From Promethearchaeota archaeon (GTDB taxonomy: Archaea; Asgardarchaeota; Hermodarchaeia; Hermodarchaeales; Hermodarchaeaceae), in contig JBHLPH010000013.1 of assembly GCA_048939625.1 (NCBI GenBank), positions 1 to 61,414 on the forward strand: a stretch of 61,414 nt of DNA, in the 5' to 3' direction. Shown here piece after piece: positions 17,019 through 47,363 of this stretch (positions within the stretch are counted from its first letter, which is position 1; the number at the start of each line of letters is the position of its first letter). The position numbers were made by a program, and so were the translations under genes. The notes beneath the pieces were generated by a model, which was given only the letters and a program-made list of their open reading frames with translations, searched no databases and was not told the DNA's origin.

Positions 17019-17483
17019 ATGACCGGTGAATCCTCCGATCCAGTTCTACAGACTCTCAAATGCTCAGAATGCGGCGCTAAAATCACCCCTGATGCTCTAC
17101 AGCCAGGAAGCCCGCTTATCTGTGAATATTGTGGCGCTATCAACGTTCGCGCCACTCCTCCACTCCCATCTCAGAAAGCTCGAAGAGGTGCACGCCATCC
17201 TAGAATGCGAATACGACATAGTCCCTTCCGTGCTCCGCTTCTCCACACGACAAAATTACTCGCTGATAAGGGTGCCATCGACACAAAGATCCTCCGGCAA
17301 TATACAAAGCGGAACATTGACAACCGGATGCGCCCTGCAGTAGCTTTACGCCAAGCACTCAAGCAAATGCGCGATGAAGGCAAACTGGATCACGACAAGA
17401 TTCTTCGAACGATTGATGAACTTATTGCCGAGAAGAAAATTCCACCTCGGGCTCGTGACAATTTCGCCCGACTTGTACAATGA
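17019..17483 (+). CDS. Zn-ribbon protein with basic helical C-terminal domain
   Basis: CSECGA...CEYCGA; Arg/Lys-rich remainder. Confidence 0.7.
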   Translation: MTGESSDPVLQTLKCSECGAKITPDALQPGSPLICEYCGAINVRATPPLPSQKARRGARHPRMRIRHSPFRAPLLHTTKLLADKGAIDTKILRQYTKRNIDNRMRPAVALRQALKQMRDEGKLDHDKILRTIDELIAEKKIPPRARDNFARLVQ

Positions 17484-17587
17484 TTTGAAGCATCCTGTCT
17501 TTCATTCCTAGGTCCAGAGCACTTTCAGGAAGACGAACACTGTAATCAAGGACCTAGTTAACAAAAAATGGTAACAGAAAATGATGA

Positions 17588-17725
17588 AGGACACTGGGAA
17601 TTATGGCGGATTAGGCACCTCCATAAAAAGGACATTTGTCCTAAAGGACACAATTGGAGGGGAGAGGGAATGGTTTTCTAGGGGGGAGGGAAGTGCCAAT
17701 ATCTATCGCCAAACCCAGTGTTCCC
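17588..17725 (-). ncRNA. Candidate structured non-coding RNA, copy 1
   Basis: Nested stems ACACUGGG/CCCAGUGU, UGGCG/CGCCA and GGCACUUCC/GGAGGUGCC; 28-nt core identical to 47138-47165; TTTAAATA about 25 nt upstream and T-runs downstream on the - strand. Confidence 0.6.
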
Positions 17726-17843
17726 ATTTAAAGCGCTAAGTTTACTTATTTAAAGATTTCATTCGGCGCTACTTTAAAAACTACTTTACAGCCATAAAAA
17801 TCTACGGAACCCGGCATTAAGCAAGATTGGGCTCATTTGGGGT

Positions 17844-19307
17844 CTAGTCAAATTGGAGGGAAGCAGGAACGGGTAATTTGGGGTGGCGTTGGTAGTAGTC
17901 ATGGATAAGTTTCAGGATATCTGCTGCCTCTGCAATATTGGAGAACACCGGAAGATTGGCTTTGCGAAATTGTTCGCGCGTTGCGAGATTTTCGAGTGGA
18001 TAGCCAACAGCAGGAACAGCGACGAAAAAGGGTTTGTGCAATTTCCTCACACAGTATTGTCCCGCATTAATCATCATATCCCAGTACGTTGTTGCCATAT
18101 CCTTAAGTTCCATGTGATTGGCCATGAAGTTTACATAATGAGGTGCGGCTTCAACAATAATGGCGTCGATGTTTTTGTCTTCGGCAACGTAACGAATCGT
18201 TTGGACCGTATTTTCGGGATAGAAGTAGCTAGACGCCATATCTACTGGATTTTTAATATTAGTGCCTACGGCATTGATTACATTCGACAATGCTTGAATT
18301 GTTTCTGAGCTCAATCGAGGAATATCAAACCCATATTGGGCAAGAGAGTCGGTGCCAGCAACTCCAGCTCCTCCACTAATTGCGATTAAAGCGACGCGTT
18401 TTCCTGGAGGTGGTGGGCATCGAATAAAGGTCACAATGGTATTGACGAGGCGTTCAAAGCTGTTAACAGTCACTGCACCCGTTTGATGAAGTAATGCTTC
18501 CCAGATATTTGTAGATCCGGCTAATGCGGCACTGTGGCTGGATACTGCTCGTTTTCCTGCTTCGGTGACTCCAGATTTCCAGACAACAATAGGTTTGTCG
18601 GAGGCGCATTTCGCTATAGCGTTCCGAAGTCGTGGTCCATCACGCACCCCTTCGATATAAATTCCTATGACTTGAGTCTTGGAATCTTGGTGCAGGTACT
18701 CGACGAGTTCCCAGCTGCTAATGTCAGCTTCGTTTCCATAACTGAAGACTTTACTGCATCCGAGTTGAGTTTCAGTGACTGCTAGGTATGCATCGATCGC
18801 TTTGCCACCGGATTGGGAGATAAATCCAACTGGTCCTGGATTAGGTGTTAGATCTGGTCGAAACGAAAAACGGGATTCTGGACATGTTAGGCCCATGCAG
18901 TTCGGACCGAAGGCACGCATGGGACTTGCTTTGATAATCTCTGTGATCTCTTTTTCCCGCTGAGCTCCTTCTTTGGTTCCTAGTTCACTAAATCCACTTG
19001 TGAAGATTGTGACTGCTTTTACGCCTTTAGCGATGCATTCTTTGAGAACTTTCGGAACGAGATGGGCCGGAACCCGGAGAATAGCATAATCAATTGGGTC
19101 TGATATTTCGCTAAGTGTTTTGTAAAATTTGAATCCCAGGGTTTCCTCGACTTTGGGATTCACTGGGTAGATTTTTCCAGGAAAACCATAGTTGAGGAAT
19201 GACTTAAGCCAATAGAATCCGGCAGACGGACTAGTCCCGATGAGGGCAACGGATTTAGAATGGATGAAGTCGTCAAACTGCTGGAAGATCTTTGCGTCCA
19301 TAGGCAT
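17844..19307 (-). CDS. ADP-forming acyl-CoA synthetase alpha subunit (CoA-binding)
   Basis: IYPVNP, FTSGFSE, GPNCMG, ISQSGG, and phospho-His motif SHSAALAG. Confidence 0.88.
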   Translation of the reverse strand: MPMDAKIFQQFDDFIHSKSVALIGTSPSAGFYWLKSFLNYGFPGKIYPVNPKVEETLGFKFYKTLSEISDPIDYAILRVPAHLVPKVLKECIAKGVKAVTIFTSGFSELGTKEGAQREKEITEIIKASPMRAFGPNCMGLTCPESRFSFRPDLTPNPGPVGFISQSGGKAIDAYLAVTETQLGCSKVFSYGNEADISSWELVEYLHQDSKTQVIGIYIEGVRDGPRLRNAIAKCASDKPIVVWKSGVTEAGKRAVSSHSAALAGSTNIWEALLHQTGAVTVNSFERLVNTIVTFIRCPPPPGKRVALIAISGGAGVAGTDSLAQYGFDIPRLSSETIQALSNVINAVGTNIKNPVDMASSYFYPENTVQTIRYVAEDKNIDAIIVEAAPHYVNFMANHMELKDMATTYWDMMINAGQYCVRKLHKPFFVAVPAVGYPLENLATREQFRKANLPVFSNIAEAADILKLIHDYYQRHPKLPVPASLQFD

Positions 19308-46735: not shown

Positions 46736-46824
46736 AACATAATCCCCACTGGCTTGGTCACGAAACGGAACACCCAAAAGCAATAATCTCATAATCATAT
46801 TTGATAAAATTTGAGGAACTGGAT

Positions 46825-47004
46825 ATGTTCTCACAACCTAAGATAGTAATTCTGTTAATTTTCATGGGAATTGTGTTTATGGCTGCTGGGTTTGGGTTAT
46901 TGTTGATTCCACTACTTGGTACACACTCGACTGTGGCATCCATCTTTTTATTAGCGGTTGGGGTTGTTGCACTTTTAGTGGCAGGGTGTTTAAGTCGTAG
47001 ATAG
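46825..47004 (+). CDS. Small two-TM membrane protein
   Basis: GAGGA SD before ATG 46825; two hydrophobic helices. Confidence 0.5.
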   Translation: MFSQPKIVILLIFMGIVFMAAGFGLLLIPLLGTHSTVASIFLLAVGVVALLVAGCLSRR

Positions 47005-47088: not shown

Positions 47089-47200
47089 GCATCAACCAGT
47101 GCATTGGCGGATTAGACACCTCGGAGAAAATTACATCGGAGAGGGAATGGTTTTCTAGGGGGGAGAGAGGTGCCAAATTTCTCGCCGCACTAGTGATTCC
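47089..47200 (-). ncRNA. Candidate structured non-coding RNA, copy 2
   Basis: Stems ACUAGUGC/GCACUGGU, GGCG/CGCC and GGCACCUC/GAGGUGUC; same 28-nt core as 17661-17688; TCATATAA upstream on the - strand. Confidence 0.6.
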
Positions 47201-47363
47201 AGCAGAAACCAAGTTCTCGCTAGACCAATCCTTATATGAAAAGGCATTCGTGAAATATAAAGGTATATTGTTACATTCACACCTCTGTTATTGTCAGCAC
47301 GAACTACAAACTTTTAAGCGGGTTTCCTAACTAGTCGCCTCACCCATTCTGAGGCTGATATTA

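Follow-up and report, generated by a model that had tools for sequence, protein, structure and literature searches.

The window, by which we mean the whole 61,414-nt stretch of a Hermodarchaeia contig analysed here, contains two intergenic sites that carry an identical 28-mer on the minus strand (CTCCCCCCTAGAAAACCATTCCCTCTCC; 17661-17688 and 47138-47165). A second, 18-nt match precedes the 3' stem of each copy and differs by one base between them (GAGGTGCCTAATCCGCCA vs GAGGTGTCTAATCCGCCA, 17/18). Both repeats had been pointed out in a preliminary description of this DNA and were recovered exactly. Copy 1 is co-directional with the acetyl-CoA-synthetase-like gene upstream (17844-19307, minus strand) and converges with the zinc-ribbon gene alone (17019-17483, plus strand), so that its earlier placement between convergent genes is right for one neighbour and wrong for the other. 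The elements of the two copies are as follows; bit scores and E-values come from covariance model R1, and BHB stands for the bulge-helix-bulge motif, both dealt with below.

Copy 1 (class c1)
17747..17760, minus strand: promoter GAAATCTTTAAATA, a purine-rich BRE-like GAAATC followed by the TATA box TTTAAATA
17589..17724, minus strand: whole folded precursor, 136 nt (R1 122.9 bits, E 2e-34)
17711..17724, minus strand: outer helix h, 5' strand GGAACACUGGGUUU, partner 17589-17601
17704..17710, minus strand: 5' strand of helix H, GGCG (17707-17710), and bulge AUA (17704-17706), from the BHB parse
17602..17608, minus strand: 3' strand of H, CGCC (17605-17608), and bulge AUA (17602-17604), canonical register
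17603..17704, minus strand: predicted excised circular product, 102 nt, following the canonical BHB register
17689..17697, minus strand: inner stem, 5' strand GGCACUUCC, partner 17614-17622 (GGAGGUGCC)
17623..17688, minus strand: large C/U-rich loop, predicted to be unpaired, with invariant columns in 37 aligned copies
17563..17568, minus strand: T6 run 20 nt past the stem, a likely archaeal terminator as read from the sequence

Copy 2 (class c2)
47255..47261, minus strand: promoter TATA box TTTATAT, about 55-62 nt ahead of the modelled stem
47090..47200, minus strand: whole folded precursor, 111 nt (R1 95.7 bits, E 7e-26)
47104..47180, minus strand: predicted circular product, 77 nt, canonical BHB register
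47123..47166, minus strand: loop, the 28-mer in common with copy 1 and then the class-specific GAUGUAAUUUUCUCC

The TATA box of copy 1 begins 30 nt ahead of the first stem base, and its loop holds the invariant 28-mer, the module CCCCUCCAAUUGUGUCC (17646-17662), a U5 tract and a copy-specific GUCC/GGAC hairpin at 17638-17649. The promoter, the downstream T-run and the extra hairpin had all been reported before, and each was found in place; runs of T5 or longer also lie downstream of many orthologues, not all. On the minus strand both copies fold into a closed, interrupted stem, as had been proposed from the pairing of their ends (copy 1: MFE -42.7 kcal/mol, z -4.66; copy 2: MFE -34.7 kcal/mol, z -4.10), and the plus strand folds worse (z -2.5 and -1.0, respectively).

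Two other features of the window lie close to these copies. Within the 1.1-kb 'intergenic' gap at copy 2, a 67-aa ORF with two hydrophobic helices (46801-47004, plus strand) converges on the RNA; this block is conserved in three relatives at 67-74% identity and is therefore probably a real gene for a small membrane protein. The sequence AATTGGAGGG, the core of a candidate target motif discussed below, occurs at 17851-17860 (plus strand), 127 nt upstream of copy 1 and antisense to the last codons of the acetyl-CoA-synthetase-like gene, probably by chance.

Distribution, covariation and inheritance of the family

With up to three mismatches allowed, CTCCCCCCTAGAAAACCATTCCCTCTCC has no third site in the 2.3-Mb assembly of the window's own genome (G000, 88% complete); BLAST gave several matches per genome in relatives. 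Covariance model R1 was built from 37 copies (alignment A1) and R2 from 68 copies. A search of the window's genome with R1 returned three matches, i.e. copy 1, copy 2 and G000:C75:5002-5116(+), and R2 added a fourth, G000:C58:61942-62062(-), plus orthologues. The genome thus carries at least four copies, and not the two that had been counted. Building and scanning such a model had been suggested as a check, and the scan found the family in all 19 of 19 Hermodarchaeia genomes (two genera, one family), with 1-5 R1 matches per genome, the further copies retaining compensatory pairing. Outside the class, 2 of 132 other Asgard genomes gave weak R1 matches (E 0.003-0.01). An exact 23-mer of the loop was present in 35 contigs when one genome for each of 185,579 species was scanned. 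Their labels are mostly Hermodarchaeota, 'Hermod' or Hermodarchaeum, or generic (Promethearchaeota, uncultured archaeon), and two MAGs were labelled by their submitters as Thorarchaeota (one) and Odinarchaeota (one).

We distinguish at least six paralogue classes, named c1-c6, of which c1 and c2 are the two copies in the window, c3 is the C75 copy and c6 the C58 copy; searches of the window's 88%-complete genome did not find c4 or c5. Rfam 15 gave nothing at gathering score across the whole window, and at E-values up to 10 the locus returned noise alone (SNORD82 at 13 bits, a lncRNA at 11 bits), in line with the earlier remark that no known family was recognised. A literal search of the literature for the core sequence retrieved unrelated primers only. 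This is an uncatalogued family of small non-coding RNAs, confined to Hermodarchaeia among the Asgard archaea.

Compensatory change is found throughout the stem. In the model-made alignment of 68 copies, 24 of the 25 modelled pairs have changed on both sides, the share of paired cells is 88.8% compared to 36-46% with the 3' partners slid, and the observed pairing values were reached by none of 500 shuffles. Since an alignment made by the model leans towards structure, the pairs were also counted in a plain MAFFT alignment as a control, where 96.8% were paired vs 36-51% when slid (12 in-register pairs). All ten pairs of the outer helix have changed on both sides across the family, which extends to the family the previous observation that this helix differs in sequence between the two copies and still pairs. 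The inner stem is paired in 94-97% of cells and has double changes at 7 of its 8 pairs. Over the 68 copies there are 142 G-U pairs vs 56 A-C oppositions, which favours the minus strand; the orientation assigned in the preliminary description therefore stands, but its statement that mismatches are G-U only was too strong.

Promoters are equally regular. Every c1 orthologue, in either genus, has the box TTTAAATA at -30 to -23 relative to the first base of the stem, and a c2 promoter of the form ..TATA(C/T)CTTTATAT.. is found at a constant distance in 13 of 14 c2 orthologues; c3 and c4 have GAGAAGTTTTTATTAA, and c5 has TTTTTAC. Chromosomal positions are conserved too: c1 lies directly behind the ADP-forming acetyl-CoA-synthetase-like gene in both genera, and c2 between the genes for an H+-pyrophosphatase and an acyl-CoA dehydrogenase (in the genomes of the genus for which flanks were fetched). 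These class promoters at fixed distances, together with the conserved positions, lead us to conclude that the members of the family are old, vertically inherited and independently transcribed genes and not mobile repeats.

These data bear directly on the possibility that the locus is not an RNA gene at all. The stem resembles an inverted repeat and the copies are dispersed, as would be expected of a MITE, and the complement of the loop reads GGAGAGGGAAUGGUUUUCUAG, which could be taken for a plus-strand mini-ORF or attenuator (RBS-AUG-GUU-UUC-UAG). A MITE, which the preliminary description had named as an outcome that would count against an RNA, is rejected because synteny of the loci, copies 1 and 2 included, extends over the genus and the class and even between genera, and because the stems differ in sequence with their pairing kept, through substitutions that are compensatory and G-U-tolerant. 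The mini-ORF is disfavoured by the G-U asymmetry, by synteny and by the side of the promoter, TATA boxes having been found upstream on the minus strand only; moreover, the plus strand of copy 2 folds no better than shuffled sequence. We consider either version of this reading extremely improbable, and that we are dealing with a real small-RNA gene family is close to certain. The earlier proposal of an independently transcribed minus-strand small-RNA family with covarying stems and an invariant pyrimidine-rich loop is thereby upheld.

Bulge-helix-bulge geometry and predicted circularisation

Besides the further paralogues, the preliminary description missed a BHB geometry within the stem. We parsed each strand as helix, 4 nt of central helix, 3-nt bulge and helix (natural register). 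In 59 of 66 parsed copies, spread over six classes, the central helix H has four standard pairs with bulges of exactly 3 nt on both strands. H itself covaries (GGCG/CGCC, GGCA/UGCC, AGCG/CGCU, AACG/CGUU), and the outer helix, the short helix h', the inner stem and the loop inserts are variable in both length and sequence. The BHB geometry is the most constant structural feature of the family.

The canonical BHB is the unconstrained MFE structure in 23 of the 66 copies, and forcing it costs no more than 1 kcal/mol in 43, 2 kcal/mol in 55 and 3 kcal/mol in 65 of them. The strict motif with both flanking helices (hBHBh') is the MFE in 17 of 66, and textbook examples occur in c3, c4, c5 and c6, including the C58 copy of the window's genome. 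The two copies in the window have relaxed forms, with the canonical register lying 2.3 (copy 1) and 2.0 kcal/mol (copy 2) above the MFE. Copy 1 is loose on its outer 3' side (U-A, two U-U oppositions, GGG/CCC), where the MFE has a 5-nt/2-nt internal loop. Copy 2, in which H pairs GGCG (47183-47186) with CGCC (47106-47109) next to the bulges AGA (47180-47182) and AAU (47103-47105), is loose on its inner 5' side (an A-C opposition followed by AUU/AAU); its MFE has the 3' bulge and the outer helix in canonical form, and the 5' side carries the 2.0 kcal/mol. The C75 copy has an A-C mismatch inside H.

Other structured RNAs were looked for and rejected. No tRNA or tmRNA was found at any of the three loci tested, inspection of the alignments revealed no C/D, H/ACA or k-turn (L7Ae) boxes, and no Rfam snoRNA match rose above noise. 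The pairs that follow the bulge are Watson-Crick (GAU/AUC or AUU/GAU) and do not include sheared G-A pairs.

The window's genome encodes two EndA paralogues (PF01974; 188 and 202 aa; regions G000:C38:8695-8949 and C46:2767-3027) and one RtcB (PF01139). The relaxed BHB forms described above need an EndA of broad specificity; heteromeric (alpha-beta)2 EndA is reported to cut non-canonical motifs (PMC5829648), and the two subunits found here probably fit this type. Cleavage at a BHB and subsequent ligation into a circle is the established archaeal route for tRNA introns and pre-rRNAs (PMC12558985, PMC7714728). In the papers searched, EndA is described as acting on tRNAs, on rRNAs and on one 5' UTR of Haloferax (PMC7714728), and surveys of circular RNA list rRNA, tRNA introns, 5S, SRP and omega-RNAs (PMC12558985). 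The literature searched contained no family of stand-alone BHB sRNA genes, and nothing of the kind for Asgard archaea.

We suggest the following course of events. A transcript started from its own TATA promoter would fold into a rod composed, in order, of the outer helix, the 4-bp helix between opposite 3-nt bulges, the short helix, the inner stem and an almost invariant, C/U-rich terminal loop of 45-66 nt. The bulges and the 4-bp helix would be recognised as a BHB motif by EndA, probably in its two-subunit, broad-specificity form, which would cut both bulges after their second base, and RtcB would join the inner piece into a circle of 102 nt for copy 1, 77 nt for copy 2 and 77-108 nt across the class. 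Such a circle would have a stem of 12-14 bp, the invariant loop at one end and, at the other, a 7-nt loop made of CGCC and the rejoined bulge bases; the flanks left over are not conserved in sequence. The predicted junctions are ..AAUCCGCCAU|AGAUAUUGGC.. for copy 1 and ..AAUCCGCCAA|AAAUUUGGCA.. for copy 2. Judging from the geometry of the modelled stem, we consider it fairly probable that the transcript is processed at the BHB into a circle.

Alternatively, the gene could give rise to a linear trans-acting sRNA, its stem protecting the ends and presenting the loop, with the bulges serving as protein-binding or structural sites that EndA leaves uncut. In agreement with such an RNA, 43 of 66 copies have an MFE other than the canonical BHB, both copies of the window have a relaxed form of it, and the promoter and T-run already bound a transcript of 110-140 nt. 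A linear product would not account for the 3-4-3 geometry alone being invariant over six classes in which every other helix varies, for an H that covaries yet stays exactly 4 bp long, or for the hBHBh' motif present in the MFE structures of c3, c4, c5 and c6, and we regard it as unlikely, though worth keeping in mind beside the predicted circle.

L143 (G062:C297:57958-58072, minus strand), one of the two weak matches outside the class and from a different family of the phylum, is a probable homologue with a canonical BHB, a compensated H (GGUG/CACC), a predicted circle of 81 nt and a related loop with CCUCUCCCCUCAAAUUG; given this locus, the family may reach beyond Hermodarchaeia in a divergent form. 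In L094 and L096 of the second genus (G017:C185 and G016:C18, respectively) the loop is kept and the 4-bp helix and bulges are gone, and these may be decaying copies or a BHB-less variant.

The invariant loop and its candidate partners

The loop part common to all classes is GAAA(A)CCAUUCCCUCUCC, with the version CAGUACCUCUCC in c5. In c1, c3, c4 and the second genus it continues with CCUCCAAUUGUGUCC and a U5-6 tract, in c2 with GAUGUUUUCAU, and c5 and c6 bear small hairpins. Over 28-40 nt the loop is 100% identical among paralogues and between the two genera, compared to just 59-86% identity for the flanking proteins. Such identity across two genera exceeds what pairing with mRNAs alone would require.

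A few mRNA leaders have complements of 12-20 nt to one module of the loop, and these include the ribosome-binding site. The complement of the c1/c3/c4 module, ACACAATTGGAGGG, has three sites outside the RNA genes (0.023 expected). In front of two paralogous ORFs (C53:91630 and C29:53499) it overlies the SD, 7-9 nt ahead of the start; two other genes (C61:54252 and C51:29512) have shorter versions, CAATTGGAGGGG, ~30 nt upstream. A perfect 20-nt complement is located in the 3' UTR of a gene for an 80-aa membrane protein (G000:C61:51301-51320), where the plus strand reads as the loop in sense; on the minus strand the stretch makes up the 5' half of a terminator hairpin (GGGGAGA/UCUCCCC) with U7 behind it. 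This hairpin is retained with compensatory changes in two relatives. The complementary sites persist in relatives with variable flanks; the SD itself and a structured leader may be another reason for this conservation.

The first two ORFs (G000:C53:91485-91622 and G000:C29:53358-53492, both on the minus strand) encode multi-copy, Lys/Arg-rich proteins of 45-46 aa. This protein family gives up to six matches per genome in 18 of the 19 genomes of the class, and its conserved, apparently structured leader has ACACAAUUGGAGGG over the SD. None of the candidate target proteins, these ORFs included, has a Pfam match.

Genome-wide enrichment of such sites was not seen. Using crude gene calls, in which the SD signal was visible at -13 to -8, 9-, 10- and 11-mer complements numbered 41, 9 and 2 in 5' regions vs 35, 7 and 1 for the reversed loop, nor was there enrichment over the sense control, and 10-mer counts across the genome were near the second-order Markov expectation. 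For CAUUCCCUCUCC, where the loop is most conserved, there is no long complement at all, and complements of the class-specific modules of c2, c3 and c6 do not go beyond chance. Of the earlier suggestion that the CU-rich loop could pair with SD-like sequences, the few long leader sites are thus retained and a general preference for such sequences is not. We propose that the exposed loop of the putative circle may pair in trans with purine-rich leaders that include the ribosome-binding site, e.g. ACACAAUUGGAGGGG, and could thereby limit translation or alter mRNA stability, as is done by 'sibling' sRNAs that have one seed in common and extensions particular to each class. Based on these sequence complementarities, antisense action on SD-containing leaders is put forward tentatively, as a possibility that falls somewhat short of probable.

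Ribosomal RNA does not offer a better partner. No 16S or 23S gene is assembled in the window's genome; against rRNAs of relatives (16S and 23S) the loop finds no complement longer than 8-9 nt and forms duplexes no more stable than those of shuffled loops, the sole exception being a non-conserved site in an intron-bearing 16S. Since 16S has the usual GGAUCACCUCCU at its 3' end, the leader motif ACACAAUUGGAGGGG does not represent an extended SD. One 16S gene of the same genus (L129, G005:C71:619-4212, minus strand) spans 3.6 kb vs the 1.5-kb model and is therefore heavily interrupted by insertions or introns.

The identity of the loop over 28-40 nt among paralogues and genera, and the missing global enrichment of targets, would both be expected of an RNA, circular or linear, that works as a scaffold or decoy of the Y RNA or 7SK type, its loop and U tract binding a protein such as SmAP/LSm or a KH-type poly(C)-binding protein. 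Almost every class has a conserved U4-6 tract beside the inner stem; this tract could be a site of the Sm type, and the genome has three LSm-domain genes. Of the two kinds of partner that the preliminary description had proposed to look for, LSm proteins are therefore present, but Ro60/TROVE is not among the genes of this 88%-complete genome (no PF05731 match). Furthermore, no partner gene adjoins any of the copies, and the U tract can pair with the conserved AGAAA(A) run instead. Such a helix, joining the AGAAA(A)C run to the U tract, could have 6-8 bp in most classes (mean 5.8 vs 4.6 when shuffled), although it rests on low-complexity A/U runs. On balance we hold a protein-binding scaffold or decoy to be improbable.

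Relation to known RNAs

In its biogenesis the family appears most like the BHB-released circular RNAs of archaea, and in its layout most like sibling sRNAs with C/U-rich seeds. The released circles compared here are those of tRNA introns (including the C/D-box intron of tRNA-Trp), pre-16S/23S rRNA and the 5' UTR intron of HVO_1309 (PMC7714728, PMC12558985). As in these, two 3-nt bulges lie 4 bp apart between flanking helices, and the same enzymes are expected to act; as in rRNA and the tRNA-Trp intron sRNA, the conserved and presumably functional part lies between the two cuts. Unlike in these systems, the 'host' in Hermodarchaeia is a short, non-conserved stem with a promoter of its own, the RNAs form a multi-copy family with a shared invariant loop, and the processing is a prediction. 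The sole role of the gene appears to be the production of the excised piece.

Plagens et al. are said to have described, in 2015, a permuted and circularised SRP RNA in Thermoproteus tenax. Like the RNA studied here, it is a stand-alone non-coding RNA gene that matures through a BHB and ligation (a maturation that is predicted in our case). It is a universal RNA that has been rearranged, whereas the Hermodarchaeia RNA belongs to no known family and is not permuted.

LhrC1-5 of Listeria, RsaE of Staphylococcus and sRNA41 of Methanosarcina mazei are multi-copy sibling sRNAs in which an unpaired, C/U-rich seed binds the SD region. They share with the present family paralogues under their own promoters, an identical single-stranded C/U-rich motif, variable stems and candidate pairing with ribosome-binding sites. 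The targets of sibling sRNAs, which are linear and come from bacteria or euryarchaea, have been validated, whereas the Hermodarchaeia RNA has a far longer loop, targets that are only suggested and a BHB processing stem. The likeness to Y RNAs, proposed earlier, extends to ends that close a long stem and a pyrimidine-rich loop (internal or apical) of about 100 nt; it does not hold beyond this, as no TROVE/Ro60 gene was found for a partner in the 88%-complete genome, no Rfam Y RNA model scores and no tRNA-like module is present.

Taken as a whole, the best explanation of these observations, and one we place just on the probable side, is a set of paralogous sRNA genes whose product would be released as a circle through the BHB and would act in trans through its loop. 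It is possible, if speculative, that they are genes for 'free-standing introns', in which the tRNA-splicing machinery would serve to make stable circular regulatory RNAs with an invariant, anti-SD-like loop that would tune the translation of a regulon or titrate a conserved partner. If true, this would add to the tRNAs, rRNA precursors and few mRNA segments now known a new class of EndA substrate (PMC7714728, PMC12558985) and a new route to regulatory RNA, which was not found in the literature searched. It would also place genetically encoded circular riboregulators in archaeal relatives of eukaryotes, a setting in which innovations in RNA processing bear on the origin of eukaryotic RNA biology. 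The back-splice junctions are predicted exactly to the nucleotide and can be directly tested, and the covariance models can be used for annotation, e.g. as an Rfam seed.

A further conserved block, GACCAAAGG(G/A)TTAAAT followed by ..GATAGCGGA.., was observed behind the c3 and c4 genes in many genomes. In the window's genome it lies at about 1650-1680 of L054 (G000:C75), about 35-60 nt past copy 3. It is not a tRNA and has no Rfam match; it could be a further small RNA or serve as promoter for the gene that follows.
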